Shown here: positions 2,287 to 30,009 of the stretch, piece after piece
Numbering within the stretch: the first letter of the stretch is position 1
How the letters are laid out: every line of letters begins with the position of its first letter
Source: Candidatus Shapirobacteria bacterium
Lineage (GTDB): Bacteria; Patescibacteriota; Microgenomatia; UBA12405
DNA: 35,117 nt
NCBI GenBank assembly: GCA_026395315.1
Contig: JAPLYY010000024.1
Span: forward strand, 1 to 35,117
Reading direction: 5' to 3'
Notes under the pieces: generated by a model
What the model was told of the DNA's origin: nothing
Database searches by the model: none
What the model saw: the letters and a program-made list of their open reading frames with translations, nothing else
Translations under genes and position numbers: made by a program

Positions 2287-4929
2287 ATGATGTTAGCTGC
2301 CCAAACACGGACAGCTATGTGGAAAAATAATATTGTTCTCAAAATCTTCCAGAAAGAATTTGTTTCTTACAGTCATTCTTTAAGTCCGTATTTTCTGTCT
2401 TTTTCTCATTTCATTGTTGTCTATCTGCCTTTTCTTATTTGGCTTGTTGTTGCGCTAACTATTTTCTGGATTTGTTACATCTCAGTTAGACTCTACCTGT
2501 TTTGGAAAGAATCAAACAAACCGGTCACGATATTTGAAGTAGTTCCTCCCACATTAACCGAACAGAGTTCGTTCACGACAACTCAACTGTTTACTTCTGT
2601 TCATGGGTTACTACGCCAGCGATCTTGGATACTCCGTTTATTCGATGTCACAAAGTCGTATGCTTTTGAAATTGTTTCAACAAAAGAAAAAGGTATTTGT
2701 TATATCCTGCGGGTTTCTGCTGATGATGCTCAAATCATCAAGAAAAATTTATTAGCATATTTACCTGGTATTCAGATCAAAGAAACGAATGACTATTTTA
2801 AAGACAATTGTGATCAAGGCCATGTCATTGATATCCATTTAACCAGACATTTCGCTTTCCCACTTAAAAAACAAGACAACCTTGAAGAATACGATCCGAT
2901 TGCCTATATCACCGGATCAATGACTAAACTGGTTGATGATGAAATGGTAGCTGTACAAACGATTGTATCGCCTATAAATAGGTCAACGGCGCACGTTATT
3001 GGACGGCTTCGGTCGCTTTTCCTCGGGGACAAAGATGTTCTTTCTGAATTACAAACGACTAATCCGTTAGGCTCTTTTTTGGTACCGATTATCCATTTGC
3101 TTCTGCAAATCTTATTATTTCCATTGGGCTTATTAATCTGGATAGTTACAGTTGGTCGGGAAGGGCCAATCCTGCCAATTATGTCCTTAAAAGGTCAATT
3201 ACCGGATAGCACTTACAGGGATATTGTTGAAACTCAAATCAAGCAAAAGATAGATCAACAATTGTTTACCGTTTCTTTACGGTTACTCACGGTTTCTAGT
3301 TCTTACTCAAACAAATCAAAAATTGAAAAAGGTTTTATTGCCGCGTTGTCTCCATTTACTAATGCAGGGTATCAATCACTTAGACCCAAAAGATATATCA
3401 AAATCAAAGCAGTAAACAAGATACTGCTTTGGCTCTATCAACATAGATTATTGGGTCTCAGTGGCAATTTGACGCTCTCTATGTCTGAGTTATCCGATCT
3501 CTATCATTTCCCCTATACCAGTACCACTAAAACCGAGAATCTTTCAAAATTACACAGCAAAGAATTACCAGCACCGTTATCCCTGAAACAAAAAACTGAG
3601 TGTGATCTGTATTTTGCCAAAAATACGTATGGAGGAACGGAAACGAAAATTGGATTAACGGTTGATGAACGCCGCCGCCATGTCTATATCTTGGGTGCTA
3701 CCGGTACAGGAAAATCCACAATGCTTCTGTCTATGATCCAGCAGGACATCGAGCACAATAAAGGGTTATGTGTGATCGATCCGCACGGAGATTTAATCGA
3801 ACAGGTCTTATCGGTTATTCCTAAATCGCACATTCCTGATGTGGTCTACTTTAACCCTGATGATATAAGTTTCCCGATGGGAATTAATTTATTAGAGTTA
3901 ACCCCAGGCTTGAATCCTGAAAACGCGGTCAGAGAACAGGAGTTTATTGCTGAAAGCATTATTTCAATTTTTCAAAAAATCTACACCGATAAATACTCAG
4001 GCCCGAGAATGGAATATATTTTGAGAAACACAATACATACTGCTTTTACTATTCCGGACGCAACACTCTTTACCATTTACAAACTTCTCATTAATACAGG
4101 CTTTAGAAAATCAGTGGTACGAAACTTAACCGACGAAAATCTTAAGGACTTTTGGAAGTATGAGTTTGCTAAAGCCGGAGATTATCAAAAAGTTAAAATG
4201 ATTTCGCCGATTACCAACAAGATTGGTCGTTTCCTATTTTCTCCAACTGCCAAACGGATTCTCGAACAGGGAAAATCCACCATTAATTTCGACACTATTC
4301 TTAATGACGGGAAAATACTTCTTTGCAATCTTTCGAAGGGCAAGATCGGAGAGGATAATTCCAGTGTCTTTGGAGTCCTCATTATGGCCAAGGTTCAGTT
4401 GGCTTCCTTAAAACGTGCCAGGATGAAGCAAGAAGAACGCAGGGATTTCTATTTATATGTTGACGAGTTCCAAAACTTTGCCACTCCGGCATTTGCTCAA
4501 ATTCTGTCCGAGGCCCGTAAGTATCGACTTGATGCCATATTAGCTCACCAAACAACTTCACAAATTGAAGACAACTCACTGGTAAATGTAACTCTGGCTA
4601 ATACGGGTACAGTAATCTGTTTCCGAACGGCTAATCCTGAAGATGAGCGGATGATATTGCCGCAATTTAGGCCATATATTGAACAGGGAGAAATTGCCAG
4701 CTTGCCCTCGTATCGTTTCTATATACGGCTTGGAGCTATGAATCCGGAAGAGCCGTTCTCAGGCATTACCGTTCCTGTTCATATCGAATACAGTCAAAAA
4801 CGGATAGATGAAGTCATTGAGTCTTCGCGCCATTTATATGCCAGGGAATGGAAAGAGGAATCTCCTAATACACCACCAATTAAAAGTGAGAAAAAAACAG
4901 CTTCACATTCAACAAGCCTCTTACCTTAG
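2287..4929 (+). CDS. type IV secretion coupling protein-like ATPase (VirD4/TraG/TraD family) with N-terminal membrane domain
   Basis: 880-aa ORF. Hydrophobic N-terminal segments are present. Walker A is GATGTGKST, followed by VIDPHGDL. Walker B is LYVDEFQNFAT, followed by ARKYRLDAILAHQTTSQ. Confidence 0.8.
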   Translation: MMLAAQTRTAMWKNNIVLKIFQKEFVSYSHSLSPYFLSFSHFIVVYLPFLIWLVVALTIFWICYISVRLYLFWKESNKPVTIFEVVPPTLTEQSSFTTTQLFTSVHGLLRQRSWILRLFDVTKSYAFEIVSTKEKGICYILRVSADDAQIIKKNLLAYLPGIQIKETNDYFKDNCDQGHVIDIHLTRHFAFPLKKQDNLEEYDPIAYITGSMTKLVDDEMVAVQTIVSPINRSTAHVIGRLRSLFLGDKDVLSELQTTNPLGSFLVPIIHLLLQILLFPLGLLIWIVTVGREGPILPIMSLKGQLPDSTYRDIVETQIKQKIDQQLFTVSLRLLTVSSSYSNKSKIEKGFIAALSPFTNAGYQSLRPKRYIKIKAVNKILLWLYQHRLLGLSGNLTLSMSELSDLYHFPYTSTTKTENLSKLHSKELPAPLSLKQKTECDLYFAKNTYGGTETKIGLTVDERRRHVYILGATGTGKSTMLLSMIQQDIEHNKGLCVIDPHGDLIEQVLSVIPKSHIPDVVYFNPDDISFPMGINLLELTPGLNPENAVREQEFIAESIISIFQKIYTDKYSGPRMEYILRNTIHTAFTIPDATLFTIYKLLINTGFRKSVVRNLTDENLKDFWKYEFAKAGDYQKVKMISPITNKIGRFLFSPTAKRILEQGKSTINFDTILNDGKILLCNLSKGKIGEDNSSVFGVLIMAKVQLASLKRARMKQEERRDFYLYVDEFQNFATPAFAQILSEARKYRLDAILAHQTTSQIEDNSLVNVTLANTGTVICFRTANPEDERMILPQFRPYIEQGEIASLPSYRFYIRLGAMNPEEPFSGITVPVHIEYSQKRIDEVIESSRHLYAREWKEESPNTPPIKSEKKTASHSTSLLP

Positions 4930-4966: not shown

Positions 4967-7078
4967 ATGTCAGAAGTAGATTCCCCAATAAAGTTAGAAC
5001 CTGTCTTTTTTGGTAAGGGAGAAGCGGCTTCTCATCTACATCTTTCAAATACACAACGGGAAGCGGTCAAGGCTATTACCCTGGGTATTACTGAAGTAGA
5101 TGAAGCGGTGAGAGCCCAAGCAGTTCCTGATATCATTAATACTCTTGAAAATGGTCATCCACTCAACCGCTTAATTACAGACCCTGAAGGTAAAACGATT
5201 GGCTATATTGCCTGCGAAGATTTTGTTCCTCAAGAAGCATATATAAAATACCTCGGAACAACAAGGAATTCAGGTCGAAGTCTACTTGAGGAAATACCTG
5301 CTTTCTTAAATTTTGCAAAAGATCATGGATACAAGAAACTTAATTTTCATGGTTGGAATGACCGATTAAATCATGTAATGGAACACTACGGTTTTAAAAA
5401 TACTCGGACTGATGCAATGGGAGGACATAATATAAATTATTATGAACGGTCACTACTTTCCCATAAAGGGAAACCGCTAGATGAGGGGCAATTTGAAAAA
5501 GAATACCAAAAGGTCATGAATATGGTTGAACCTGAGGAACGAAGTAAAAAGGAACGGGAAATTACTCGTGTGTTTCAGGAAGTAAGCGGCAGGCTTACAA
5601 GTTATGAAAAAACATTACCGAGAGAGAAACAAAGATTTGAATTTGGTCAGCGTCAGCAGGATATTTTAAAACTGAAACTCGCGCGCCATTTTCAAAACAG
5701 CGAAACCATTGACGCAAACACCCTCTATGACGCCATCATTGAAAGTCCAAAATTTATTGATAATGACAAAGGTTCCCTGAAGCACTTATTTGAAGTTCAT
5801 GAAGTGAAGACGTTACAAAAACTTGCCGAAGCACGCAAAAAATTGGCTGAAAGATCGGGAGATCAAAGTTTTAACCCGTATGAAAATTTATTTACCACCA
5901 CATCCGGCAAGTATTATATGGCAAGGCTTTTAAATATGCCCCATTTAGAGCAAGAGTCCGCATATCTGAAACACTGTGTAGGGACAAGTGATTCCTATAT
6001 TAATCAAATGAAACGGGGAGAAATTGAAATACTTTCTTTTAGAAATGTACCCAAATTTAATCCACTCACCCAGGAGCTTGAAGGTGATACCCCCATTTTT
6101 ACCATTGAGTATAATCTGAAAACAAATATAATTGAGCAAATTAAAGGCAGAAAAATGAGTGATCGTACAGAGCTGCTTATTTCTCCGAATGATGCTTACT
6201 TTAACGATATAATTGATGCATTAAAAACACTGCGGTCAACCAGAACAGATAACGGCAAGTTAAGAAATTTCACCGAGATTTCCCCAAGTGAATTACAAAA
6301 TATTCATGTTGATGTATATCAGGTCTTTACTGAAAATGGACCTGTTTCCTTTAGAGATTTCGACCCAGATTCTGGAGTGTTTGCCTTAAAGATGGGTAAG
6401 ATGTCGATTGACGCAACTATGTCTCATGAAGATGTTGCTAAAATTGTCAGACTGACAAAAGGAGTTAGGTGTTTACCAGAAGAAATTGCTCTGGCTCAAG
6501 AAGAAGTGTCTGCTCAAACCAAAGTGCTGTATGTCGATAAACTTTCTTCAAGGTTTTTTCAGTGGCTACCTGAAAATGTTGAACATGTCTACGACTCTTT
6601 TTCAGAAGGTAAAATTAGTAGAGAGAGTATAGTGGCTGGAGGTATAAGTGCGAAGGTACTGGTAACTGATATGAAACAAAAGGGAATGGAACCAAGCGAT
6701 TATGCCAAATCAATGATGGAAAATTCGGATTTTGTTACATTAAAGCAATCGGAAAAAATAGACTTAATTCATCTAACGGTTGGTGACATGGGTTTTACTG
6801 ATATACCAACGACCGATGAACTTTATCAGAGAGCTTTGGAGTTAGGTCTAGAACTTTGCCCACCAGAAGTTGGTCCAGCACTTCGTTTGAAAGATGAAAA
6901 TCAAGCAATGTGGAGTAGCTATTATATTGGAATGAAGCAAATTTCTGGCTCTGACGGCGGTCCGGACGTGTTCGAGGTCGGACGCGGTGGCGATACCCCG
7001 TGGTTGCGTAGCGTTTGGGCCTATCCGGGCTATCACTGGGCTCTCGACCGTGAGTTTGTCTTCCGTCTTCGCAAGTAA
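4967..7078 (+). CDS. DGR1 target protein, multidomain, with C-terminal variable region
   Basis: 703-aa ORF lying 37 nt downstream of the coupling ATPase. The last ~47 codons are the VR matching TR1. I saw no N-terminal signal peptide or TM segment. The N-terminal region is GNAT-like by eye. The central YLKHCVGTSDSY...GEIEILSFR is reminiscent of PcfJ-like proteins, but both domain calls are tentative. Confidence 0.85.
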   Translation: MSEVDSPIKLEPVFFGKGEAASHLHLSNTQREAVKAITLGITEVDEAVRAQAVPDIINTLENGHPLNRLITDPEGKTIGYIACEDFVPQEAYIKYLGTTRNSGRSLLEEIPAFLNFAKDHGYKKLNFHGWNDRLNHVMEHYGFKNTRTDAMGGHNINYYERSLLSHKGKPLDEGQFEKEYQKVMNMVEPEERSKKEREITRVFQEVSGRLTSYEKTLPREKQRFEFGQRQQDILKLKLARHFQNSETIDANTLYDAIIESPKFIDNDKGSLKHLFEVHEVKTLQKLAEARKKLAERSGDQSFNPYENLFTTTSGKYYMARLLNMPHLEQESAYLKHCVGTSDSYINQMKRGEIEILSFRNVPKFNPLTQELEGDTPIFTIEYNLKTNIIEQIKGRKMSDRTELLISPNDAYFNDIIDALKTLRSTRTDNGKLRNFTEISPSELQNIHVDVYQVFTENGPVSFRDFDPDSGVFALKMGKMSIDATMSHEDVAKIVRLTKGVRCLPEEIALAQEEVSAQTKVLYVDKLSSRFFQWLPENVEHVYDSFSEGKISRESIVAGGISAKVLVTDMKQKGMEPSDYAKSMMENSDFVTLKQSEKIDLIHLTVGDMGFTDIPTTDELYQRALELGLELCPPEVGPALRLKDENQAMWSSYYIGMKQISGSDGGPDVFEVGRGGDTPWLRSVWAYPGYHWALDREFVFRLRK

Positions 7079-7082
7079 CTTT
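6937..7082 (+). repeat. DGR1 variable repeat (VR1)
   Basis: It gives a 146-nt ungapped alignment to the reverse complement of 8521-8666. There are 27 differences, and 25 of them fall at positions that are A in the TR. The segment TGAGTTTGTCTTCCGTCTTCG near the 3' end is identical in both copies. Confidence 0.92.
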
Positions 7083-7114
7083 GACCCTTTGTTCCTTAGT
7101 TCCTCCTTTACTAC

Positions 7115-8212
7115 TTAGGGATTTTGATTCTTTGACTCTTTGTTCTCCTTGTCGCGAAGCGACTCAGTCATAATTTTTTGTGAGAGCTTGTATGTGTTCC
7201 CATGACGCAATAAACCCAAATATGAATTTAATGTTTCCAATGAGTTGTTTTGTCGCAGTCTTTTCAACATGTGGTGTTTGGTGGCCGTACGGAGAATTCG
7301 ATGATGACCAAAATGTACCCAACCTAAAAAATCAATTCCTGAGGCAAGCGTTTTGATAAAGACTTTTTTAGGATGAAGGGAAAGTTTTAAATTTGTTTCT
7401 AAATATTCGGAAAGTTTTGGAATAAGTTCTTCTAAGTATATTTTACTTTGACTAAAGATGAGAAAGTCGTCAGCATAGCGCAAATAATATTTCACTTTCA
7501 ATTTTCTTTTCACAAATTGATCGAATTGATTCATATAAATATTAACGAGAAGCTGACTGGTTAAATTGCCAAGAGGAAGCCCAACACTAAGTTTTCCAAC
7601 AGTTTCAAAACTATCAATGACTTGTTCCAGAAGCCACATGATATCAGGATCTTTAATGGATTCTTTTAAGATATTTTTGAGAACAGCGTGGTCAACACTG
7701 GCAAAAAATTTTCTAATATCACCCTTTAAAATCCAAGTGGTTTTCGTGTTATTTTGAGATGCCTTTCGTCCAAAACTTCTGGCTCTATCCATGGCCTTAT
7801 ATGTGCCCTTACCCATTCTGCAAGAATAGGAATCAAAGATAAATTGACGATCAAAATAAGGATAGAGACTACGGTGAAGAGCATGATGAACGATTCTATC
7901 GCGGAGACTTGCCTTGTGAATATCTCTTGGTTTGGGATCGCTTATTTTAAAAGCAAAATAGCCACCATGTCGATATGTTTTGGTAATCAAGTCTTCATAA
8001 AGAGAAATCAAATTATCGGAAAAATGTAAGATAAATGTAGCAACATCTTTTCTGTTCTTTTTTCCTCGTAAGAATTCCTGCCATGAGGTTAGTAAATTTT
8101 CAAAAGAAACGATATCATTATACCTATGGTTAAAACGCTTTCTTTTAGCAGCGCTTCGATTTTGATTAAAATCAAAGATGGATATTTGCTCTGGACGAGT
8201 ATTGTTTCTCAT
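7115..8212 (-). CDS. DGR1 reverse transcriptase
   Basis: 365-aa ORF. It carries LPLGNLTSQLLVNIYMNQFD (the DGR-type IGxxxSQ motif), the YADD box (LRYADDFLIF), LSLHPKK and GIDFLGW. It is adjacent to Avd and TR1. Confidence 0.9.
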   Translation of the reverse strand: MRNNTRPEQISIFDFNQNRSAAKRKRFNHRYNDIVSFENLLTSWQEFLRGKKNRKDVATFILHFSDNLISLYEDLITKTYRHGGYFAFKISDPKPRDIHKASLRDRIVHHALHRSLYPYFDRQFIFDSYSCRMGKGTYKAMDRARSFGRKASQNNTKTTWILKGDIRKFFASVDHAVLKNILKESIKDPDIMWLLEQVIDSFETVGKLSVGLPLGNLTSQLLVNIYMNQFDQFVKRKLKVKYYLRYADDFLIFSQSKIYLEELIPKLSEYLETNLKLSLHPKKVFIKTLASGIDFLGWVHFGHHRILRTATKHHMLKRLRQNNSLETLNSYLGLLRHGNTYKLSQKIMTESLRDKENKESKNQNP

Positions 8213-8509
8213 ATTCCTAAGTGTGCCCGATATACCATTGGTACACGAATTGAAAATAAATTTTTAGATCTTTTGGAACTTTCCTATCACACCTACTTTA
8301 CAGAGAAAGATAAAAAGATAGAAAAAATTACTGAATGTATCTCAATTCTAGATACCTTAAAATTTTTTATCTATATTTCTTGGGAGGCAAAATTTATTTC
8401 TCCTAAAAGTTATGAGTCAATGACGGTTATACTTGATACTGTTGGAAAAATGTTTGGTGGCTGGAAGAAAAGTTTGGAAATTTTAGAGAAGAAAAAAGAC
8501 ACCTCTTAG
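8126..8509 (+). CDS. avd: Avd-like four-helix-bundle accessory protein of DGR1 (start uncertain; TTG at 8162 gives 115 aa)
   Basis: The core DGYLLWTSIVSHIPKCARYTIGTRIENKFLDLLEL...MFGGWKKSL aligns by eye with Avd2 (YDFILWLYPIINRLPKNHCLIIGKTLEE...MLTGWIG). Its 5' end overlaps the RT1 5' end on the opposite strand. Confidence 0.7.
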   Translation: MVKTLSFSSASILIKIKDGYLLWTSIVSHIPKCARYTIGTRIENKFLDLLELSYHTYFTEKDKKIEKITECISILDTLKFFIYISWEAKFISPKSYESMTVILDTVGKMFGGWKKSLEILEKKKDTS

Positions 8510-8520
8510 GCGTACAAAAG

Positions 8521-8666
8521 AAAGATACTTTCGAAGACGGAAGACAAACTCATTGTCGAGATTCCAGTGATTGTCCGGATTGGCCCAATTGCTATTCAAC
8601 CACGGGGTGTCGTCATTGCGTTCGACCTTGAACACGTTCGGATTGCCGTCAGAGTCAGTTTTTTGT
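8521..8666 (-). repeat. DGR1 template repeat (TR1)
   Basis: Read on the minus strand it has nine AAY codons, and every one of them differs in VR1 (VR1 has G,D,G,R,V,Y,Y,A,R). It is on the same strand as RT1. Confidence 0.92.
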
Positions 8667-9004
8667 ATGAAGTGCCATCTTTGCCACTGTTCCCGGAAAA
8701 TGCCGAAGAACTGTATTGTATGTGTGATATAAAATCAACCAGCACTCCACACCAAGTATATTTCTTTAAAAGACAGGACTGTAAATCCTCTGTAGAAAGC
8801 CGTAACCATCTGCAATCTCAATTTCCAGCTGTCAGAAAGATCTCGAGAAGCCGTAACCGCTCAATATAATCTATCTAACGAAAGTATAACAGAAACATAT
8901 TGTGTATTTTGATCAATTATATAGATGATTATCAGACGATTTATGTCCTGGTTGGTTAGGAATTATTAAGTGGTATTTTTGGTTGATATCATCATGGTAA
9001 TCTT

Positions 9005-9022
9005 TTACCTACCGGTAGGTAA
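9005..9022. promoter_or_regulatory. perfect 18-bp palindrome, candidate oriT or operator upstream of the replication-relaxation gene
   Basis: TTACCTACCGGTAGGTAA is self-complementary. It lies in the 235-nt AT-rich intergenic region upstream of 9105. Confidence 0.4.
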
Positions 9023-9083
9023 TGAGATATTTTTATTTAGGCCGATAGATAGGGTTATTTATTTTTTACTTTTACTTCTTATT

Positions 9084-9097
9084 CCTTATATATAAGG
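9084..9097. promoter_or_regulatory. perfect 14-bp palindrome adjacent to the RBS of 9105-9914
   Basis: CCTTATATATAAGG is followed immediately by GGAGAGG and the ATG at 9105. Confidence 0.4.
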
Positions 9098-9104
9098 GAG
9101 AGGA

Positions 9105-9914
9105 ATGATACAATCATTCCAGATTCTGCACCAACACAATACTATGGACAACAATACTCTTACAGACAAACAACTGACTATTCTCAAACTACTATACCGA
9201 TTTCGATTTTTAACTAGCACTCACATTCAACACTTACTCAATGACAAAACATCACGACTAACAAATTATCATCTTAAAATTTTAACGACTCAAAATTATA
9301 TAAACAAACACTACACACGAACACTCGGATCAGGCAACCAGCCAGCTATTTATTTTCTCTCGTCAGGAAGTATCAAAGCATTACAAAATATTGAGGGTAT
9401 AGAATCAAAAACACTCCAGCGTATTTATCGGGAAAAAATCAGATCACCACAATTTATCTCTCATGCCATATTTATTGCCCAATATTATCTTTATCTACAA
9501 TCTGAATCTGCAAAATCAAAACATACTCTACACTTCTTCACCAAAACAGACTTATTAGCTCACAAATATATTATCCACCCCTTGCCCGACGCCTATTTTG
9601 CCCGAGTTGATGAAAAGAAAGAAACCAAACGCTATTTTGTCGAAGTTATCGACGAGGGCGCGCCACGGTTTGCCTTAAGAAAAAGAATTGAGCAATATAC
9701 CGACTATATCGACAACGGCACATTTGAAAAGGTAACTAAACACCCATTCCCGACAATCCTCTTAATCTGTCCAACCGTTGGAGTACAAATATACTTAAAA
9801 AAATATCTTGCCAAAATGTACGAAGAATCTTCCCTTGATCAAATAGAAATCTTCATTACCACCAAAGAAGGGGCATTCTTGGGCCAGTGGGAAAAAGTAA
9901 ACCCAGAGGAATAG
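9105..9914 (+). CDS. replication-relaxation family protein (putative relaxase-like function)
   Basis: 269-aa ORF. The N-terminal LTDKQLTILKLLYRFRFLTSTHIQHLL is the typical wHTH opening of Replic_Relax proteins. The conjugation-gene neighbourhood supports the call. Confidence 0.6.
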   Translation: MIQSFQILHQHNTMDNNTLTDKQLTILKLLYRFRFLTSTHIQHLLNDKTSRLTNYHLKILTTQNYINKHYTRTLGSGNQPAIYFLSSGSIKALQNIEGIESKTLQRIYREKIRSPQFISHAIFIAQYYLYLQSESAKSKHTLHFFTKTDLLAHKYIIHPLPDAYFARVDEKKETKRYFVEVIDEGAPRFALRKRIEQYTDYIDNGTFEKVTKHPFPTILLICPTVGVQIYLKKYLAKMYEESSLDQIEIFITTKEGAFLGQWEKVNPEE

Positions 9915-10802: not shown

Positions 10803-12040
10803 TGTATTTGGAAGCATGCCCATGCTTCCAATACTTGGATGTCTTCAAAGCGGGGTGAGGTTTGCAAGGGCAAGCGAAGCACAGTTTATTGGAGTGAAAC
10901 GGAAACCCTTGCCAAACGAGGGGCAAGACCCCTAAATATCAAATTATTTAAAAAAGTGATTAGGACGCGATACATTTCGGACTCTTATACAAAAATATAT
11001 GAGTCACGAGACAGACAGAACAAGACACATTCTTCCAAAGCTGGGCAAGGGTAATTACAATACCCTGATGAAGCTGATTTCAAATAGTCTTACTTTTAGT
11101 GTTTCTGATTGTGCTAAGTTCAGGCTTCATGTATTGGATCATTATTTTAAACATGGCATCAAGTCCACCTGTCATGCTTTTAATCTTCCAAGGAGCACTG
11201 TGTATGGTTGGAGGAAGTCTTTTTTATCCTCAGACAAAAAGATAGTTTCTCTGGTTCCCAAATCCACCAGGCCAATTAGAACAAGGCAGATGGTGCTTGA
11301 TCTAGAACTTCTGGAGTTTATTAAATCAATGAGAGAAGAATATGGAAATCTGTCCAAATATAAAATCAAGCCATTCTTAGATGAATACTCCAAAAAGAAC
11401 AATCTACCTTTATATGGAACAACCAAAATTGGAGTAATTATTAAAAGAAAACACTTTTTCTTTGAAACTAGATCAAAAAGGAGATTTAAAAGAAAACCCT
11501 TTATAGTGAGGCTAAAAAGATCTCCCAAAGAAACTATCCCGGGATATATTGAAATGGACTCTGTAATCATTCAGGTGATTAACAGAAAATATTTCTTTTT
11601 AACAGCAATTGATATTGTTACTAAATTTGCTTGGGTAAAAATGACCACAAACCATTCCTCAAGGCAAGCCAAGCTTGCCTTAATTGAATTCAAAGAAAAT
11701 TACAAATACTGTTTAAGAACAGTCCAAACTGACAATGGATCAGAATTCTTAAGTGAGTTTGATGAGTATTTGCAGGAGATCAAAATCAAACATGAGTTTA
11801 TCTATCTTAAAAGTCCAAAAATAAATGGTGTGGTTGAGAGATTCAACAGAACCATACAAGAGGAATTTATTCAAAGAAATGATAGTTACATTGATGACAA
11901 GTTTAAATTTAATCAAAAACTACAAAATTATCTAATCTGGTACAATACAAAAAGACCACATTACTCACTGGGACAAATTTCCCCCTATGAGTACATGCAA
12001 AGATTTACCTTAAAAGTCTGAAATGTACCCGACCTATACA
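10803..12040 (+). mobile_element. IS481-like insertion sequence (boundaries approximate)
   Basis: It contains a single rve-type transposase ORF. The putative ends are TGTAT... (10803) and ...TATACA (12040), which are only weakly complementary. No flanking direct repeat was seen. The right end abuts the truncated VirB4-like reading frame. Confidence 0.5.
10999..12021 (+). CDS. DDE transposase with integrase core (rve) domain, IS481-like
   Basis: 340 aa. An N-terminal HTH-like region is followed by IEMDSV, VQTDNGSEF, INGVVERFNRTIQEEF and YNTKRPHYSLGQISP. Confidence 0.85.
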   Translation: MSHETDRTRHILPKLGKGNYNTLMKLISNSLTFSVSDCAKFRLHVLDHYFKHGIKSTCHAFNLPRSTVYGWRKSFLSSDKKIVSLVPKSTRPIRTRQMVLDLELLEFIKSMREEYGNLSKYKIKPFLDEYSKKNNLPLYGTTKIGVIIKRKHFFFETRSKRRFKRKPFIVRLKRSPKETIPGYIEMDSVIIQVINRKYFFLTAIDIVTKFAWVKMTTNHSSRQAKLALIEFKENYKYCLRTVQTDNGSEFLSEFDEYLQEIKIKHEFIYLKSPKINGVVERFNRTIQEEFIQRNDSYIDDKFKFNQKLQNYLIWYNTKRPHYSLGQISPYEYMQRFTLKV

Positions 12041-12042
12041 GT

Positions 12043-13218
12043 GAAAACAAACTGGCACAAAAAAGAAACCTAGATAGCTCGAGTGCAGCACTCACTTTCC
12101 CGTTTGTGTCATCGGAATTGGTACAGGAATCTGGAATTCTTTACGGCATCAACAAATCAAATAACTCGCTAGTCATTATTGATCGCTACAGTCTAAACAA
12201 CGCCAACTCCATTATTTTTGCCCAATCGGGAAGCGGGAAAAGCTATACGGCTAAAGTCGAAATTTTAAGACACTTAATGCAGGGTACCAAGGTTATCATT
12301 ATCGATCCGGAGCGGGAGTACAAACAATTGGCGGCGAGTGTTAACGGTACCTATATCAAACTTTCGAGTAGTTCCAAAGAAAAAATTAATCCGTTTGAGT
12401 ATTCCCAACATTCAGTCACTGATGAAAACAATTTGACTGAACATATTCAAGATCTCACTGAGCTTATTTCCCTGATGGTTGGTTCACTAACCTCAGAGGA
12501 GCGGGCATCGGTCGACCGGGCTTTGCTTCTAACTTATAAAAAGATCGGTCTGACTACCCGTAAGAATGCGAGATCGAAAAAAGCAGAGTATCCACTCCTG
12601 AAAGATTTTTACAAAAATCTCAAAGTCATGAAACATAAAGATCTCTGTGACAGGCTAGAACGGTTTGTCAAAGGTTCACTCTCGACTGTTTTTGATTCTC
12701 AAACCAATATTAAACTCGATAACCGTTTAATTGTTTTTGATATTAAGGATCTCAACGAATCCATCCGATCAATCATGATGATGGTCGTGGCCAATTTTGT
12801 AAACAACGAAGTCAAACAAAATCCACAAAAGAGAATGTTGGTGATAGATGAGGGCTGGCTCCTTTTGCAAGAACCGGAAAGCGCTAGGTTTATTTCAGGG
12901 TTGGTAAGACGTGCAAGAAAATATTATTTAGGAGTCACTATTATTACTCAGCAAGCCAATGACTTTTTGAATCAGGAATACGGAAAAGCTATCGCCAGCC
13001 AATCATCCTTAAGAATTCTGATGCGCCAAGATACGACAACAATTAAAAAAGTAGCCAGTGAATTTCATTTATCCGCCTACGAACAGCACTATTTATTAAC
13101 TTGCGACCGAGGGGAAGCTCTCATTATCGCCGATCAAAATCATGTGGCAGTAAAAGTGGTAGCCTCAGATGAAGAACATCCACTTCTGACCACCGACCCC
13201 AGAGAAGTCTACATCTAG
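12043..13218 (+). pseudogene. VirB4/TrbE-like T4SS ATPase, C-terminal fragment (N-terminal half missing)
   Basis: Walker A is AQSGSGKSY, Walker B is MLVIDEGW, followed by RRARKYYLGVTIITQQ. The frame stays open upstream of the GTG at 12106 (..SENKLAQKRNLDSSSAALTFPF..) as far as the IS end. No N-terminal VirB4 portion is found to the left of the IS. Confidence 0.7.
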
Positions 13219-15679: not shown

Positions 15680-16024
15680 TTGGAAAAATTTGTCCTGCAC
15701 CAAAAAACCTATGATTTTATTCTTTGGCTTTACCCTATTATTAACCGTTTACCCAAAAATCATTGCCTGATTATTGGAAAAACACTTGAAGAATTAGCCG
15801 TATCCCTTCTTTTAGTGTTGATGAAAGCCAACAAATCACGGGGAACGGATAGAGAACGGTTTCAGGAAGAAGCATCAAATACTTTGGACTATCTCTATAT
15901 CATGATTCGGTTGACCAAGGATATACGTCTGATGAGCGTAAAGCAATATACAGCCAGCGCCGAAAAACTCAATGAAATAGGCCGAATGCTGACCGGCTGG
16001 ATCGGAACCGCAAAAAGTGTATGA
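15680..16024 (+). CDS. avd: Avd-like four-helix-bundle accessory protein of DGR2
   Basis: 114 aa with a TTG start preceded by GGAG. It carries LPKNHCLIIGKTLEE...NEIGRMLTGWIG and lies immediately upstream of TR2 and RT2. Confidence 0.8.
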   Translation: MEKFVLHQKTYDFILWLYPIINRLPKNHCLIIGKTLEELAVSLLLVLMKANKSRGTDRERFQEEASNTLDYLYIMIRLTKDIRLMSVKQYTASAEKLNEIGRMLTGWIGTAKSV

Positions 16025-16060
16025 TAAGAAAAGTGGGAAAGATAAGTCATAACGCAACGT

Positions 16061-16177
16061 GCTTTCTCCGCGGTGGCAATTGGAATAATGGCGACAACTC
16101 CGGGGCATTCGCAGCGAAATTGAATAACGCGCCGGGTGATTCGAACAACAATATTGGCTTTCGTTGCGCCAGCGATC
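16061..16177 (+). repeat. DGR2 template repeat (TR2), FGE/C-type-lectin type
   Basis: It lies between avd2 and RT2 and translates as FLRGGNWNNGDNSGAFAAKLNNAPGDSNNNIGFRCASD, with nine AAY codons. It is homologous to 18953-19069. Confidence 0.75.
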
Positions 16178-16373
16178 GTATTGTTTTGCTAGGTACCCGC
16201 AAAACAAACGCCAGAACGAGTGGTATATGTCTACGGACACATATCCAGGGTTTTATGATCACAGCTGTCTTTTCCTTTCCGAAATTTTTTTGGAAAAACA
16301 TAATGCCTGTATTTTCATTATTCTCGGCAAGCGGATAATGAAGTAAATGGGTGATAAACAGATTGGGTACGAG

Positions 16374-16406
16374 AGACAAACCCTGCCCTCAAAGCGGGGT
16401 TTGTCT
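16374..16406 (+). promoter_or_regulatory. 10-bp-stem hairpin ending 1 nt before the likely RT2 start codon
   Basis: AGACAAACCC (16374-16383) pairs with GGGTTTGTCT (16397-16406), and the ATG is at 16407. It lies in the TR-to-RT spacer. Confidence 0.45.
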
Positions 16407-17492
16407 ATGTTTGAACAAATTTATGATTTGGAGAGTTTGTGTGCCGCCTTCAAACGGGCACAGTTGGATAATCGCTATAAGCGAAAAATCTGTGCCTTTT
16501 GTTTTTCCCTTGAAGAGAATTTATTGCGTTTGAACTGGGAATTGCAACGAGGTTCATATGTGCCAAGCCCTTATACCTATTTTATGCTCCACGACCCAAA
16601 AATCCGAGCCATTGCGGCACCGGATTTTCGTGACCGGGTGGTACAACACGCCCTGGTCGACTGTATCCAGCCGATTTTAGAAAAACAATTCATTTATGAC
16701 TCCTTCGCTTGTAGAGAAGAGAAAGGAACACATTTTGCCGCCCGAAGAGTAAAACGATTTCTTATGGCAGCAAGATCTTTATACGGAAGTCAAACACCAA
16801 TTTATGTGCTTCAGTGTGATATCAGGAAATTTTTTCAGAGCGTTTCTTGGGATATTCTTCTTGGTATTGTTCAAAATACCATCACCTGTCCGAAAACATT
16901 TGCTCTGATTAGAACAATTGTGACTACTCATTACAACGCGTTACCGCCGACAAAGACTGACTCTTGCCAAATGTCTCTCTTTTCGAAAAGTTCAGTCGGA
17001 ATAGATGCGAGTATTTCCGTGGCAACGCGGACAGGATTACCAATAGGAAACCTCACCAGTCAACTGCTTGCTAATGTTTACCTCAATGAACTGGATCACT
17101 TTATCAAAGACAGATTAAGATTACGTTGGTACGCCCGGTATATGGACGACTTCTTGGTAATACATCCCGATCGCGTTTACTTAAAGCAACTCTGTGATCA
17201 AATAAACATATTTCTTAAAGACACATTACATCTTTCCTTACATCCGAAAAAATTAACTATCAAAAACGTCTCAGACGGAGTTCCCTTTGTCGGATATCGG
17301 ATTTTTTATGACCATGTACTGATTCGTGGAAATACGCTTCGTCGAATTGAAAAAAACTACCGCTCAAAAACAAAACAACTGAAAAACGGGCGTTTCACTG
17401 AAGAAAAACTGGATCAAACTAAGGCGTCTATTACCGGTCATCTTAAGCACGCTAACAGTTACGGATTAACTAAGAAGATATTTTCAAAATAA
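16407..17492 (+). CDS. DGR2 reverse transcriptase
   Basis: I chose the start MFEQIYDLESL; the track ORF begins 20 codons earlier, at 16347. Motifs are LPIGNLTSQLLANVYLNELD, YMDDFLVIH, LSLHPKK and VPFVGYRIF. Confidence 0.9.
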   Translation: MFEQIYDLESLCAAFKRAQLDNRYKRKICAFCFSLEENLLRLNWELQRGSYVPSPYTYFMLHDPKIRAIAAPDFRDRVVQHALVDCIQPILEKQFIYDSFACREEKGTHFAARRVKRFLMAARSLYGSQTPIYVLQCDIRKFFQSVSWDILLGIVQNTITCPKTFALIRTIVTTHYNALPPTKTDSCQMSLFSKSSVGIDASISVATRTGLPIGNLTSQLLANVYLNELDHFIKDRLRLRWYARYMDDFLVIHPDRVYLKQLCDQINIFLKDTLHLSLHPKKLTIKNVSDGVPFVGYRIFYDHVLIRGNTLRRIEKNYRSKTKQLKNGRFTEEKLDQTKASITGHLKHANSYGLTKKIFSK

Positions 17493-17594
17493 ATGTATAC
17501 GGATATCTTGTGTTGTGCGTCTTCATACACTATTATGATATATAGATGAACTGGGTATCGGCCTAGTTTGTTTGCATAGAAAAAAGGATTGATT

Positions 17595-17717
17595 ATGATT
17601 ATGGTAACAGAGCCTAAAATATCCACTAAGATAGCAATCTTTAAAGGTAAGAAGGTTCGAAAAGTTATCTTCCAAAATCGAATAGATTCAAATAGTTTTT
17701 CTCTTACCCCAAATTAA
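17595..17717 (+). CDS. small ORF (40 aa), possible Bro-N/antirepressor-like N-terminal fragment
   Basis: AAGGA lies 6 nt upstream of the ATG. It translates as MIMVTEPKISTKIAIFKGKKVRKVIFQNRIDSNSFSLTPN. Its stop is 1 nt before the ATG at 17719. The family call rests only on the IAIFKGKKVRKV pattern. Confidence 0.25.
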   Translation: MIMVTEPKISTKIAIFKGKKVRKVIFQNRIDSNSFSLTPN

Positions 17718-17718
17718 C

Positions 17719-20700
17719 ATGAAACCATTATTAAAAAACCTAAAAGCATACCTGTTTGTCCCACGCTGGCACTTGTCACGGTTTCAGTTTAATCTCTTTT
17801 CGATTTTATTTTTGTCTATTGGCCTTATTGGCGGAACGTATTTGACGCTTCTTAAAGTTTTTCCTAACGTTTTTGCCATAAACGACACAACTCAAATCTG
17901 GACGTTTGACGCCGGACATGCAACTGATTACACCACCGCTTCTACCATCATGACGGTTGATGCCAATGGCGCCCATCCGACAGGCGGCGTAGATGGAGCC
18001 AATGAAATCACTAACTCAAGCTTTACGGCAAATAATAACTCCTGGACACTGACGGCCCTGCAAAGCGCTACTAATACTCCGGCTGGCTGGGTAGTTGTTC
18101 CGGGAAACAGTAATTTTGTAGCGACCGGCTCGGCGTTTTTGGCCATGAAATATGAAGCAAAATGCGCCAATTCCGCAACCCCCACAGTTGGACTGACCAG
18201 TCCGGCGGATACAAGCTACGAGGTTTACCGTGATGACGGAACGGCAACGGCGGCCAATAACTGTACAGCGGCCAACGGCAGGGTGGTAACTTCGCTTGCC
18301 TCGGGATATCCAATTACTTATCTTTACCAAACAGAGGCGGCCACTCGCTGCGCAACAGTAACTGTGGGTGGCGCCGCTGCCCACTTAATCACCAATGACG
18401 AATGGATGACAATTGCCAATGACGCGGAACAACAGGCTGGTAACTGGACAGGGGCGGCGGTGGGTTCCGGCTATTTATTTGCCGGCCACAATGATAACAC
18501 TCCGGCTAAGGCCAGGGTTGCCTCAACCACCGATACCGGAAATTACCGCTGCGCCTATACCGATGCCAGTCCGGGCACGGAAGCTCCGAGTGCCTGCCCA
18601 ACCAAGACTGCCCTTGGTGAATCAGGGCTTGTAGGAAACCAGGTTCGTGTTTTGACATTATCAAACGGCCAACCTATTTGGGATATTGTCTGAAACGTCT
18701 GGGAATGGACAAATAATACGGTTCCGGCTAATCTGCAACCAACATCTTGGAACGGAACGACAGATGCGACAACCGGAGATTGGTCCGATTATGCAAGCGG
18801 ATCATTGCCGAGATATCTCCATAGCTACGTAAGCGGTTCACCGGTAACAAAACTAAAATCAGAACCAACAAGTTCTTCTTACACCCACAATGCTACATAC
18901 GGTATCGGAAGAATATGGAATTATTCTCTGTCAAGCAGTTCAACGGCTTACGGCTTTCTCCGCGGTGGCGATTGGAATAATATTGGCAACGCCGGAGCGT
19001 TCACATTGTATCTGAACATTACGCCTGTCTACCGGAACTACAACCTTGGCTTTCGCTGCGCCAGTGATCCCGTAGCCCTCTCCCAATCTCAGTCCTCTAG
19101 CATAGGCCGCGGAGCGGCCGGCGGCGAAGTTTTGGTGGTCCCTGCGGTAGCCGACGCCAAATTTACCCAGAGCATAAATCTGGGTGAAGTTGCCAGTTAT
19201 GATTTTTCCGCTTATGTCTACGACACCACAAGTAGTGGCGGGGCGGTGAGTGAAACGGTGGCCCAGTTGTATTTCAATGGCGCGGTGGTTAACCCAACCA
19301 CTTATACAGCGGTAACAGGAGAAACCGGGTGGTATAAGCTGACCGGAACCGTTACTAGCACCAACAGTGCTGTTGAATACGGATTATTTGTCAAAGCCGG
19401 AAAAACCGTTCGTGTCGATGACTTTACTTTATCCAAATCCGGAACTGCTTACAGTGTTTTCACCAAAAACGGTTATTTCAAAAACGACGTTTCCTCATGG
19501 GATTCGTTTTCAGCCAGTGTTACGAATAACGGCACTAACGGCTCGGTTGTCTACCAACTCTGCACTGATGACTTGGGGGATGCTGCCGCCGTTGGACAAG
19601 GAACTGCCTGCCAAGCCCAAAACAAATGGAAATGGTGGAACGGGAGCGCTTGGGTGTATGCCACCAACAGTACCACAGAGGTAAACACTGCCGCCCAATT
19701 AACACAAGCAGTGATGCAACACGCCTCGTTGGGAACATCTTCTAAAAAAATCAGTGTTAAGGCAATTTTGAGCTTCGGCGGAGTAGATTACCCCAAAATC
19801 GCGACCATTACCCTGGGACTGACCACAGACACGACGCCCCCAACCAATGCCACAGGACTGTACATGAATAACGAAAACGGCGTTACTTGTACCGATACTG
19901 ATAACTGCTGGACAAAATTGACCGGACCAACATTCTCCTGGACTGCCGGAAGCGACACTCAGTCACCCACTGTCCGATACTGTGTCTATTTGGGTACAGA
20001 CGCGGCTGGGGAGCCGGCAACGGACAAAGGAAAGCTGGGAACTTCTCCGGTAACCGTTCCTGTCGGCTGGACCTGCCAATTTTTGATTTCTGCCACCTCT
20101 TTGGATCTCTCAACTGCCGGATATTTGGCAACTGCACTGTCAAATGCTGACGTATTTACCACTACTGCAAATACTTACTATTTGAAAATAAAGGCTGTTG
20201 ATAACGGCGGAAATACGTCAACAACCAGTCTTTCTATGAAATTTAGGTATGACGGAACCGCACCAACTAATGTAACCTCGATTAATCCGGCGTCGGGAAA
20301 TTTTTCTAATGTCAGCGATATGAATTTTTCCTGGCCGGTTTCTCCCGCGATAGCAGCTTCCATTGATAACGAAAGCCAGGTATTAGGCTGGCAGTATCAG
20401 ATAAACCCAAGTGTGGATACCAACGGCGTTACAACGAGCGCCTGGAAAGGGACAACCCACTCAACAAACTTTAATCTTGACTATATTCCGGCAACAGCTT
20501 CTGCATATACATTTGTAACTTCCCGCGATAGCGATGGAAGCTCGGTGGGAGTGGGAAAGGTTAGTTCGGGCACTAACCAGATTTATTTCAGAACGGTTGA
20601 TAATGTGGGTAATTTTTCCTCAAACGCCACCATCAGAACCGGCTCTATTTCTTTCGGTGGAATTGCGCCGTCATTTATTCAAACAGACTCAGTGACTATT

Positions 20701-22560
20701 ACTCCCGATTCGGCAACAACAAACTCTTACGCCCTTTCCTGGCCCGCGGCAACAGCGACCACAAATAAAACGGTGACTCACTACTATTACATGATTAATG
20801 CGTCCCCGCCGACAACCTTAGCTACTTTGCAAGGAAACGCCTCGACTTATATCGATAACGGCACAGCCACAACCGTGGCCGTTCGCGCCCTGCCAAATGT
20901 TAATAAAGGCACAAACACGGTGCGGGTGGTGGCAATAGATAGCGCCACCGTTCCCAATTATTCATCCAGTAATGTTATCAGCGGAACTTTTGTACTGGAT
21001 TCGGATATCCCGGACAATGTCGGTAACCTGGTTGCCTCAGATTCCTCAATTAAATCTCAATCACAATGGAATGTTACCTTAACCTGGACGGCACCGGTCT
21101 ATCAGGGAGCGGGAAATCTTACCTATATTGTCAAACGCTCAACCGATAATGTTACCTTTACCCAAGTTGGAACCAGTACCGGCCTTTCCTATGTAGATAA
21201 CGCCCCTGCCTCTGCCTTGTACTACTACGAGGTTATAACCAAAGACAACACCGCTGACGGCTATTCAAGTGGCACCAACGCGGTTTCCATTACCCCAACG
21301 GGTAAATGGACAACCGCCCCAACCCTTGACTCAGGCCCCGATGAAGGATCAATCACCACTATAAAAGCCACAATTTCGTGGTAGACTTCAAGTACCAGCG
21401 ATTCCAAAGTACAATATGGAACAACGAGTGGCAGTTACAGCGCCGACGAAGTATCCAATTCATCTCAGGTAAGTAGCCACACAGTGAATCTAACCAACCT
21501 TAAAGCCGGAACGACATACTATTACAAGGTGAAATGGACGGATGAAGACGGCAACACCGGAACCTCTGACGAGAACAGTTTTACCACCGCTTCGGCACCC
21601 ACCATTAAGGATGTGACTGCCGGAAGTATCGGTTTATCCTCGACAATTATTCAATATACCGCTAAAGACGCCTCAAAGGTGAAAATTTACTACGGTAAAA
21701 CCACATCTTTTGGCGGCCTTAAAGAAGTTTCTACCTCTACATCGGAAACAACCTATACCACTCAGCTATCTGACTTAGATGACGGCACTAAATATTACTA
21801 CAAAATTAACTCTTTTGATTCAGAAGGAGCCGAATACGAGGGAACAATTCTTGATTTTACGACTCTCCCGAGGCCAAAAATCTCCGGCGTACGCCTAGAA
21901 ACGGTGGCTAATACCGCCCAGACAACTATCCGTGTGACATGGACAACTAATACGGAAGTTTCCTCAATCGTGACTTATTACCCGGAGGGTAATTCTGCCG
22001 CTGTCCGCGATGAAGTCAAGGTGACCTTGGAAAAGGGCGCGCATTCACTCATGATCCGGGGTTTATCTACCCAAACCAGATATTTGTTGGTTGTCCGAGG
22101 TCGAGACAAGCTAGGCAACGAAGCTATTTCTGATACCCAACGCTTTACAACTGCCACAGATACCCGTCCGCCGACGATCTTAAACCTTAAAGTTATTGGC
22201 GGCACAATTTCGCCAGTTGGATTTGCCGCAGGCGACGTTAAAGCTCAGCTGATTATTACCTGGGATACAGATGAACCGGCTACCGGACAGGTTGAATTCG
22301 GACAAGGTTCTGGCACCACTTATTCCCAAAAATCGCAGTTTGACGGCAACATGGCCAGTAACCACACCGTTATTTTATCCGGCCTAATACCAAGCCAGGT
22401 ATACCATCTACATGCGCTGTCTCAGGACGCTTCGGGCAATCCCGCAGTCAGCATTGATTTGGTCACTATCGCGCCCAAAGCAACCCGCTCGGCACTTGAT
22501 TTGGTAGTCAAAAATTTATCGGAGGCATTTGGGTTTATCGGTTCCATTCAACTGAAATAA
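17719..22560 (+). pseudogene. giant surface protein (signal anchor, FGE/C-type-lectin domain with VR-like segment, Ig/Fn3-like repeats) in one frame with two in-frame stops
   Basis: Track ORFs 17719-18693, 18805-21384 and 21484-22560 share one frame and are separated only by TGA (18691-18693) and TAG (21382-21384). The TGA replaces the Gly of the conserved motif, reading WDIV*NVWEWT. Four tandem Fn3-like units of the pattern (..TW.T....S.V.YG......YYYK) occur in the last ~400 codons. Confidence 0.7.
18953..19069 (+). repeat. VR-like scaffold homologous to TR2 (not adenine-specific)
   Basis: It translates as FLRGGDWNNIGNAGAFTLYLNITPVYRNYNLGFRCASD. It is the same length as TR2 with no gaps, and the first 17 nt are identical. 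Of 32 mismatches, only 8 fall at TR adenines. Confidence 0.7.
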
Positions 22561-22562
22561 CT

Positions 22563-23324
22563 ATGATGGAAACAACTAAAACCACGATCATCGAAGTAAA
22601 AAACCTTAATAAAACCTTTGAGGTTAAGTCAACACAAATACCGGTGTTGAAAGATATTAACGTGGAGATTAAAAAGGGCGAGTTTATCATTATTACCGGC
22701 CCGTCCGGCTGTGGCAAATCCACCCTCTTACATATCCTGTTGGGACTTGAACCGCCAAGTTCGGGCTCTGTTGTCTTTTTGGGTAATAATCTTTACGGTG
22801 GCATGACCGAGGATGAACGCACAGAAGTGCGAAAAACCGAAGTCGGCATGGTGTATCAACAACCCAACTGGATTAAGGCTTTAACCGTTTTGGAAAACGT
22901 GATGTTTGCCCTCCGGATTAACGGAGAAACGGATGAAGATGCCCGCAAAAAAGCGATTGAGGTTCTGACTATGGTGGGTATGGATAAATGGCAAGATTAC
23001 ATTCCAACCGAGCTATCAAGCGGGCAACAGCAGAAAGTGGCTTTAGGACGGGCTGTTGTCACCAACCCCCAGATTATTATTGCCGATGAACCGACGGGGA
23101 ACCTCGACTTTAAATCCGGTCAGGAACTGATGGAACTTTTAAAAAAACTGAATAATGAAAACCGAACGATTATCATGGTGACACACGACCTGGAATATCT
23201 GACCTTTGCCACCCGGTCGTTTATTATGTTTGACGGCAAAATTGTCGGATCGGCACATGAGCATGAACTGGCGGGAAAGTTGGGCGGTTTCAAAAAATTA
23301 ATGGCTTCAGTCACCAAACAATGA
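22563..23324 (+). CDS. ABC transporter ATP-binding protein (MacB/LolD/FtsE-like)
   Basis: Walker A is GPSGCGKST, the signature is LSSGQQQKVALGRA, and Walker B is IIIADEPTGNLD. Confidence 0.9.
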   Translation: MMETTKTTIIEVKNLNKTFEVKSTQIPVLKDINVEIKKGEFIIITGPSGCGKSTLLHILLGLEPPSSGSVVFLGNNLYGGMTEDERTEVRKTEVGMVYQQPNWIKALTVLENVMFALRINGETDEDARKKAIEVLTMVGMDKWQDYIPTELSSGQQQKVALGRAVVTNPQIIIADEPTGNLDFKSGQELMELLKKLNNENRTIIMVTHDLEYLTFATRSFIMFDGKIVGSAHEHELAGKLGGFKKLMASVTKQ

Positions 23325-23325
23325 T

Positions 23326-26197: not shown

Positions 26198-26306
26198 GGT
26201 TTACCTCCATATTATCAATAAATACGATTTTTCCGTCTACCTCTGTGATTCCTAATTCCCCGAGCTTATAATATGTCTTGATTACACTCTCGAAAAGAGG
26301 TTCCAC
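26190..26306 (-). CDS. small conserved ORF (38 aa, GTG start) upstream of the HKD nuclease; paralogue at 31015-31191
   Basis: MEPLFESVIKTYYKLGELGITEVDGKIVFIDNMEVNHE is ~53% identical over 38 aa to the translation of 31015-31191, and many of the nucleotide differences are synonymous-type. There is no obvious RBS, and the frame is open upstream into the repeat. Confidence 0.3.
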   Translation of the reverse strand: MEPLFESVIKTYYKLGELGITEVDGKIVFIDNMEVNHE

Positions 26307-27867: not shown

Positions 27868-27970
27868 CGGCGGCTCTCGGCGGATTTGAATTATGCCTTT
27901 GCAGCGCTGTCTGCGAAGGGGGGCGCAGCCAGCGCTGCCCCCACTTCCGACTCGATTTCCCTTTTGGTGA
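27868..27970. repeat. inverted repeat IR1, right copy (103 bp)
   Basis: It is the exact reverse complement of 26323-26425. It lies 47 nt upstream of the recombinase start codon. Confidence 0.9.
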
Positions 27971-30008: not shown

Positions 30009-30009
30009 A

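Follow-up and report, generated by a model that had tools for sequence, protein, structure and literature searches.

A diversity-generating retroelement of the candidate phyla radiation type among mobile-element genes of Candidatus Shapirobacteria, with a conserved RNA domain beside its template

The 35,117-nucleotide contig of a Candidatus Shapirobacteria bacterium that we analysed as a single window (GenBank assembly GCA_026395315.1, contig JAPLYY010000024.1) carries a diversity-generating retroelement (DGR), here called DGR1, whose template repeat (TR) and variable repeat (VR) differ almost only at adenines of the template. We put the probability at roughly 0.87 that DGR1 is a complete element of the type found in the candidate phyla radiation (CPR, or Patescibacteria), with the order TR-(avd)-RT (avd being the accessory gene and RT the reverse transcriptase), lying amid conjugation and mobile-element genes and working by a mechanism of the kind proposed below. 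The element combines an adenine-biased repeat pair, an RT with its characteristic motifs, a VR in frame at the 3’ end of its target gene and an adjacent Avd. The initial annotation, made from the letters of the sequence, had called DGR1 bona fide and apparently active. The first of these descriptions is borne out by the bias of the repeats, by the intact RT, avd and target genes and by relatives that have TR/VR pairs of their own; the second stands in part.

The relation between the two repeats carries this reading. The reverse complement of the TR (8521–8666, minus strand, as is the RT) aligned without gaps to the VR (6937–7082, plus strand) over 146 nt with 27 mismatches by direct comparison, and a repeat finder independently returned the same pair as the longest inverted repeat in the window. 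Twenty-five of the 27 mismatches fell at TR adenines (15 A>G, 6 A>T and 4 A>C; hypergeometric P=1.7e-14 for at least 25 of 27, with 43 adenines among the 146 TR positions). Only one fell at a VR adenine, so the direction of transfer, from TR to VR, is unambiguous. The adenine-derived substitutions extend across 6937–7072, and the VR is in frame with the open reading frame (ORF) 4967–7078, covering codons 657–703 plus the stop. Most TR adenines (38 of 43) stand at codon positions 1 or 2, as do 22 of the 25 that were substituted, and the nine AAY codons of the TR read G, D, G, R, V, Y, Y, A and R in the VR. The substituted fraction, 25/43 (58%), can be set beside the approximately 50% of TR adenines changed per event in the Bordetella phage BPP-1 (PMC6182149). 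The ungapped alignment with its adenine bias had been described in the initial annotation and was reproduced by computation, as, exactly, were the nine replaced codons. Both of its exceptions also exist, a C>T at 6994 (synonymous, GAC>GAT) and a T>A at 7078, but the latter is the third base of the stop codon and does not follow it, as had been stated.

Might the pair instead stem from duplication of a gene fragment, or from gene conversion, with the differences added later by ordinary mutation? Nothing specific favours this. Both copies are richer in GC than their surroundings (0.59 in the VR against 0.38 in the remainder of the target gene), as duplicated fragments can be, but ordinary mutation would not concentrate 25 of the 27 differences on adenines of only one copy, would not target codon positions 1 and 2 of AAY codons, and would not repeat the pattern beside homologous RTs in about 20 other genomes. 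We regard this explanation as effectively refuted and give it almost no probability. The substitutions at 6942–6944 and 6948 are also present in a target homologue from another lineage (L036), and may be fixed differences at the 5’ edge rather than products of recent mutagenesis.

The 3’ end of the VR (7051–7082, plus strand) resembles an initiation of mutagenic homing (IMH) site. It begins with a 21-nt block identical in TR and VR, TGAGTTTGTCTTCCGTCTTCG, which the initial annotation had noticed and which lies at 7051–7071, and continues with CAAGTAACTTT. After the block the VR reads CAAGTAA and the TR AAAGTAT, the bases specific to the VR being the C at 7072 (A in the TR) and the A of the TAA stop codon at 7078 (T in the TR). 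The block is not GC-rich, unlike that of BPP-1. A GCAAGTA[AG] box that includes the stop codon is conserved at the VR ends of relatives, whose TRs diverge there. That the differences near the stop codon might tell IMH from IMH*, as suggested earlier, is a reasonable idea, and the comparison with relatives strengthens it.

The protein machinery is intact and adjacent, as had been proposed. The RT gene (7115–8212, minus strand, converging on the target gene) encodes 365 aa without interruption and matched Pfam RVT_1 at 9e-23. Its YADD motif had been read correctly, and the motif given as IGNLTSQ is in fact LPLGNLTSQ. The avd gene (8126–8509) lies between TR and RT on the opposite, plus strand. 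Its product matched Pfam bAvd (7.2e-13, 49.4 bits against a cutoff of 40) and NCBIfam DivGenRetAVD (E=3.3e-16, residues 12–115 of the 127-aa ORF). The start codon may be the ATG at 8126 or the TTG at 8162. Because the profile already matches from residue 12 of the ORF, avd and RT overlap head-to-head at their 5’ ends, sharing 51–87 nt of coding sequence (8126–8212). Public gene calls give avd only 78 aa, from the TTG at 8273, and would lose a conserved IPKxxRYTIG helix.

A search with one genome per species returned 27 loci whose RTs are 44–70% identical to that of the window. Most belong to metagenome-assembled genomes of Patescibacteria, four record titles read ‘uncultured Gammaproteobacteria’, and a small scanner found an adenine-biased TR/VR pair beside the RT in 21 of the 27. 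The avd gene is inverted between TR and RT wherever it could be detected, and about 20 relatives share the gene order. This is architecture B3 (TR, reverse-strand avd, RT), which accounts for 90% of CPR DGRs in Wu et al. 2018 (PMC5758913), and it is the arrangement seen here: TR 8666–8521 on the minus strand, avd 8126–8509 on the plus strand and RT 8212–7115 on the minus strand. Targets resembling PcfJ form category g of the same study (PMC5758913), and the target of DGR1 has a PcfJ-like domain upstream of its VR. DGRs restricted to Patescibacteria fall in clade 2 of Roux et al. 2021 (PMC8144416). Since both the layout and the PcfJ-like target have been described for CPR DGRs, the element belongs to a catalogued class, with which it also shares the host lineage and a C-terminal VR ending in ..FVFRxRK and a stop. 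It differs from the class in its setting among genes for a type IV secretion coupling protein, a relaxase and recombinases, and in the position of its target, which lies downstream of the RT and convergent with it rather than upstream on the same strand. Among the loci examined, most have the upstream arrangement, and only the window and loci L009, L034 and L039 have the convergent one.

A mis-join during assembly could in principle have produced both the convergent target and the inverted avd, and two contigs from the Logan collection, L007 and L008, do end at or within the repeats (at 7072 and 8632). Six independent assemblies, however, span target, RT, avd and TR at 99.9–100% identity, the convergent layout recurs in the three loci just named, and relatives share the inverted avd. 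We give an artefact of this kind scarcely any credence.

The target gene (4967–7078, plus strand) is intact and encodes 703 aa, with an N-terminal GNAT-like fold, a central PcfJ-like domain (PF14284, residues 272–396, 29.4 bits against a cutoff of 25) and a C-terminal C-type-lectin-like domain that bears the VR. An AlphaFold2 (AF2) model of the full-length protein had a mean predicted confidence (pLDDT) of 85.5, and its top Foldseek matches were GNAT acetyltransferases (E=7e-6, TMt up to 0.72). Foldseek gave no aligned residues, and from the topology of the model we assigned the match to the N-terminal part, where the GNAT-like fold would occupy about residues 25–165 (window 4967–5500) and appears to be family-wide; this part had no match in Pfam or NCBIfam. 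As the GNAT domain dominated the full-length search, the C-terminal domain was modelled apart. Residues 560–703 gave a pLDDT of 95.4, and nearly all of the top 21 Foldseek matches in the PDB were C-type lectin domains (CRDs). The resemblance that the initial annotation had asked to be looked for appears in weak matches, and a C-terminal lectin fold is likely but not proven. Searching the PDB with a sequence profile of the target family returned nothing, nor did NCBIfam for the target, and a fold search of BFVD gave nothing significant.

More than 249 homologues of the target were found, mostly CPR proteins of about 700 aa at 42–57% identity, many with a precomputed PcfJ annotation. Their C-terminal consensus ends in ..FVFRxRK, and the positions at which the template has AAY are unconserved. 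An HCVGTSDSY motif in the PcfJ domain is nearly invariant among 81 homologues. A type IV coupling protein gene precedes the target gene both here and on the contig of the L036 homologue, which hints that a conjugation-associated protein is being diversified; other family members lie in ordinary chromosomal contexts.

The comparison of relatives also drew attention to RNA features beside the template. In 22 loci the approximately 250 nt upstream of every TR are conserved and non-coding. Some 210 nt of this stretch, next to the TR on its 5’ side (window 8664–8875, minus strand), form a covarying RNA domain made up of a three-way junction and two more helical elements. The junction (8664–8753, minus strand) consists of P1 (8753–8742 with 8675–8664), P2 (8739–8724) and P3 (8711–8689), and abuts the TR, its closing helix P1 ending at the first TR base. 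In an alignment of 20 loci (A3), 96.1% of the cells in its 23 pairs were paired, against 32–55% when the partners were slid, and 21 of the 23 pairs showed compensatory changes; none of 500 shuffles reached the observed values. The minimum free energy structure of the single sequence recovers P1–P3. The upstream half of the domain (8779–8875, minus strand) comprises a hairpin, Pa (8875–8839), and nested helices, Pb (8828–8779), and in an alignment of 14 loci (A4) 26 of its 30 predicted pairs had compensatory changes.

A covariance model built from the junction (R1) and searched in 362 kb found one copy per DGR of this clade and no stray matches. It scored loci held out from its construction at 123 bits (L039), 111 (L038), 98 (L037) and 85 (L032). 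In the window its single match was at 8659–8801, with 114.4 bits, and it found none at the second DGR of the window, DGR2. Rfam had no match anywhere in the window at its gathering thresholds. A permissive Rfam scan of 8400–9150 gave RAGATH-32 (20.5 bits against 41.8) and FTX_2, both of which we dismissed as chance. We found no description of the 5’ domain in the searchable literature, though an earlier one may exist. Upstream of the domain, at 8883–8888 on the minus strand, is a -10-like box, TATACT, which may be the promoter of a separate TR RNA. Similar boxes (GATATACT, TATAAT or TAAGAT) stand near the same alignment position in most of the 22 loci, as judged by eye. A sigma-70 scan called no promoter for the TR RNA because there is no match to a -35 element, and the box is a suggestion from the alignment only.

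The other side of the TR is also conserved. Seven nucleotides past the TR end, overlapping the avd stop codon, the minus strand has a stem-loop, ACGCCT-AAG-AGGTGT (8513–8499), followed by a U-run (8498–8486); together (8486–8513) they were the sole terminator-like site that a terminator scan found in 6700–9200. Of 22 loci, 20 have a GC-rich hairpin and T-run past the TR, on the strand of the TR; the rate in random windows is 5%. Handa et al. (bioRxiv 10.1101/2023.10.23.563531), whose survey reached only 40 nt to the 5’ side of the TR and 100 nt to its 3’ side, reported that 207 of 278 DGRs have a stem-loop directly after the TR. They equated it with the Avd-binding element of BPP-1, and the position of the stem-loop in the window agrees with theirs. 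We rejected the hairpin as a terminator of avd because the U-run exists only on the TR strand.

Two further features might bear on how the target is told from the template. Immediately 5’ of P1 is a purine-rich strand, AAAGAAAUAUACUU (8754–8767, minus strand), which we call the anti-IMH strand and which is complementary both to the 3’ flank of the TR and to the CAAGTA box of the VR. Its predicted partner is the 3’ end of the TR with the adjoining flank, AAGTATCTTTCTTT (8517–8530, minus strand): RNAduplex gave -10.3 kcal/mol for 8767–8754 with 8530–8517, with 13 of 14 positions paired. The complementarity between strand and TR flank is matched within lineages, at -7.2 against -5.4 kcal/mol over 20 loci (permutation P=2e-5). 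In relatives the 7-mer before P1, usually containing UACUUG, fits the VR-specific CAAGTA box better than the corresponding TR positions: the VR match was the better of the two in 13 loci and the poorer in 2, with 5 ties (Wilcoxon P=0.0017). Compensatory changes at this box occur in L013 and L020, where AAUCG stands with CGATT or CAATT, and the match to the VR flank extends to 11–14 bp in L017, L019, L024, L012 and L009.

The second feature is an array of six CTTWG pentamers that follows the target stop codon (7079–7142, plus strand, with starts at 7079, 7087, 7095, 7114, 7130 and 7138) and overlaps the last codons of the convergent RT ORF. Over 22 loci the pentamer occurs 2.9 times per 90 nt after the VR, 0.30 times after 410 other ORF ends and 0.18 times after the TR, which is an approximately ten-fold enrichment over other ORF ends (Mann-Whitney P=8e-16) and near absence after TRs. 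Its spacing peaks at 7–8 and 16 nt, and there are 5 copies in L038 and 7 in L039, both held-out loci. Beyond the array, inside the antisense 3’ end of the RT, lies a hairpin, GTCGC-GAA-GCGAC (7151–7163), with a T-run at 7174–7179 (7151–7179 in all, plus strand). From its sequence it is a possible terminator of the target gene. L009 and L039 share it, and in most relatives the array is followed by a hairpin resembling a terminator, but the assignment is weak because the terminator scan passed over this one. Taken as a whole, the folded RNA domain is robust as a comparative result, and the features that might discriminate the target are suggestive.

How recently has the element worked? The target homologue in L036 is about 82–84% identical overall (82% at the nucleotide level), yet its VR differs from the window TR at only 3 positions where the TR has no adenine. 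The two VRs differ from one another at 24 sites, 20 of which are TR adenines; the L036 contig ends at the stop codon, and the comparison is of its VR with the TR and VR of the window. The two lineages therefore carry independent outcomes at adenine sites on a near-identical scaffold. The 136 nt of the window VR up to 7072 contain only one non-adenine change, and that one is synonymous. The substituted share of template adenines is also close to that of one BPP-1 event. Together these observations show evolutionarily recent retrohoming, and to this extent the element deserves the description ‘apparently active’.

Ongoing activity is another matter. Eight Logan contigs from different runs have an identical RT and are 99.9–100% identical to the window, and so clonal, and the TR is identical in seven assemblies; the six of these contigs that include the VR have exactly one VR sequence among them. 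No VR variants were found in the 90% cluster of the target, which holds only the window sequence. Present-day activity appears low or absent in the sampled population, and the element may be a relic in which the repeat pair records past retrohoming, the machinery is dead in this strain and the VR has become ordinary fixed sequence. The single VR shared by six assemblies from different samples is consistent with such a relic, as is the report that DGRs of the CPR clade tend to score as less active than average (PMC8144416). Moreover, DGR2 looks decayed, which indicates that decay does occur in this window. Against it, the RT, avd and target ORFs are all intact, the VR has gathered a single synonymous change outside template adenines, and the RNA domain, with every helix intact, reaches a score (114 bits) that matches those of relatives. 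These data are also consensus assemblies, unable to reveal minority variants, from samples that appear to share one clone. On balance we think it unlikely that DGR1 is a relic. The low-coverage contigs L007 and L008, which break at the 3’ edge of the VR (7072) and inside the TR (8632), could reflect graph branching at the repeat or heterogeneity of the VR in those samples.

Several points weigh against the reading of DGR1 as a complete, working CPR-type element. The VR was exactly identical in the six independent assemblies, whose contigs run unbroken through it, so ongoing diversification is not seen at the consensus level, and the reported low activity of clade 2 points the same way. The Avd score of 59.5 bits lies under the curated NCBIfam cutoff of 80, and the avd start, promoter and terminator are candidate assignments from sequence. 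In the window itself the anti-IMH strand fits TR and VR equally, at 6 of 7 positions each. The similarity of the target C-terminus to C-type lectins is weak (E 0.03–0.9, the best being 0.03; TM 0.35–0.47), and no match to a solved DGR variable protein (Mtd, TvpA or similar) was found in the PDB and BFVD searches.

On the favoured reading, the features described above would fit together as follows. The template RNA is probably its own transcription unit, starting from the -10-like box near 8885 and converging on avd, with RT and avd diverging from one another. It would be a minus-strand transcript some 400 nt long that runs from roughly 8880 to roughly 8490 (both ends being inferred), composed of the 5’ domain of about 210 nt, the 146-nt template and the 3’ stem-loop with its U-run. 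RT and Avd would copy the template into cDNA, misincorporating opposite adenines, and the cDNA would replace 6937–7072, the last 46 codons of the 703-aa protein, recoding up to about 20 surface positions. Transfer would end short of the stop codon, as the TR reads TAT where the VR keeps TAA.

Priming may be in cis. By analogy with BPP-1, the predicted duplex of 8767–8754 with 8530–8517 would present the 3’ end of the TR for reverse transcription primed near 8754, and the first templated base would then be A8531. Such a start fits the A>C at 7072 and the stop codon, which lies further on and is kept. The RNA-cDNA strand made in this way would run colinear with the VR antisense strand, CAAGTA box included, which would offer a base-pairing reason for one-way transfer, the strand before P1 helping to select VR over TR. 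We therefore suggest, as a tentative and rather doubtful proposal, that the RNA of CPR-type DGRs is a separate transcript, permuted relative to the Bordetella prototype, with a domain of about 210 nt on its 5’ side and a strand (8754–8767, UACUUG plus a purine tract) antisense to the target IMH.

The comparison with BPP-1 (mtd-avd-TR-brt; PMC6182149; bioRxiv 10.1101/2023.10.23.563531) shows what is shared and what is rearranged. Both elements have an RT with Avd and adenine-specific mutagenesis that changes about half of the TR adenines. In both, the VR ends a C-type-lectin-like domain, the 3’ boundary is IMH-like, a stem-loop stands directly after the TR, and the sequences flanking the TR are joined by a duplex (predicted here). 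In BPP-1, however, the essential structured RNA (Sp, 140 nt) comes after the TR and extends into brt, whereas here the domain is 5’; avd is antisense in the window; and in place of a GC-rich IMH with a nearby cruciform, the VR is followed by the CTTWG array. The large domain 5’ of the TR, together with the hairpin and U-run after it, is what makes the RNA appear permuted and separately transcribed. By analogy only, the layout also resembles the msr-msd RNA of retrons, a single transcript whose structured non-coding part precedes the templated segment on the 5’ side, with a duplex closing off the template. Retrons belong to another RT clade and have neither VR nor retrohoming, and we detected no homology, Rfam giving no match.

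DGR1 appears to lie inside a conjugative or integrative element of its CPR host. Between 297 and 15441 the window encodes a serine recombinase, the type IV coupling protein (2287–4929), a Replic_Relax relaxase (9105–9914), an rve transposase (10999–12021), a TraG/VirB4-like ATPase (12106–13218), an M23 peptidase and AbiEi/AbiEii. The DGR of Legionella pneumophila is likewise cellular and reportedly sits on an integrative conjugative element; it is said to differ in having a surface lipoprotein as its target and an avd-TR-RT architecture.

The rest of the window holds other elements. DGR2 (15680–19069) has the order avd-TR-RT, with avd at 15680–16024, a TR-like sequence at 16061–16177 and an RT at 16347–17492. 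Its sole VR-like match, at 18953–19069, is 74% identical with 30 mismatches, and the lectin-like frame around it has an in-frame stop, so that the target of DGR2 looks decayed, or its real VR lies elsewhere. Because only 8 of the 30 mismatches are at adenines, we rejected both this match as an active VR and the DGR2 TR as a second donor for the DGR1 VR. The region 18000–25000, with a GC content of 0.45–0.51 against 0.35–0.41 elsewhere, may be foreign DNA; its products include large proteins that look secreted and an ABC/FtsX transporter. Further along, inverted repeats at 26323–26425 and 27868–27970 (103 nt, 100% identical) bracket a serine recombinase gene (26282–27820), and adjoining repeats at 27964–28070 and 30546–30652 (107 nt, 98%) bracket a block with a HopA1-like gene (28287–30639); the segments between both pairs may be invertible.

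As a DGR the element is an ordinary one, and its value lies in the comparative RNA features beside the template. To our knowledge, target recognition and one-way transfer, the distinction between IMH and IMH*, remain unresolved even for the Bordetella phage, and we know of no experimental work on the TR-(avd)-RT class. The covariance model could improve the annotation of DGRs in CPR genomes. The 5’ RNA domain, the strand that covaries with the stop-codon box of the VR and the VR-specific pentamer array are elements that could be mutated in a reconstituted system. If the proposed mechanism is true, it would explain by base pairing why the VR always receives the information and the TR never does, with the CTTWG array as a further element on the target side.

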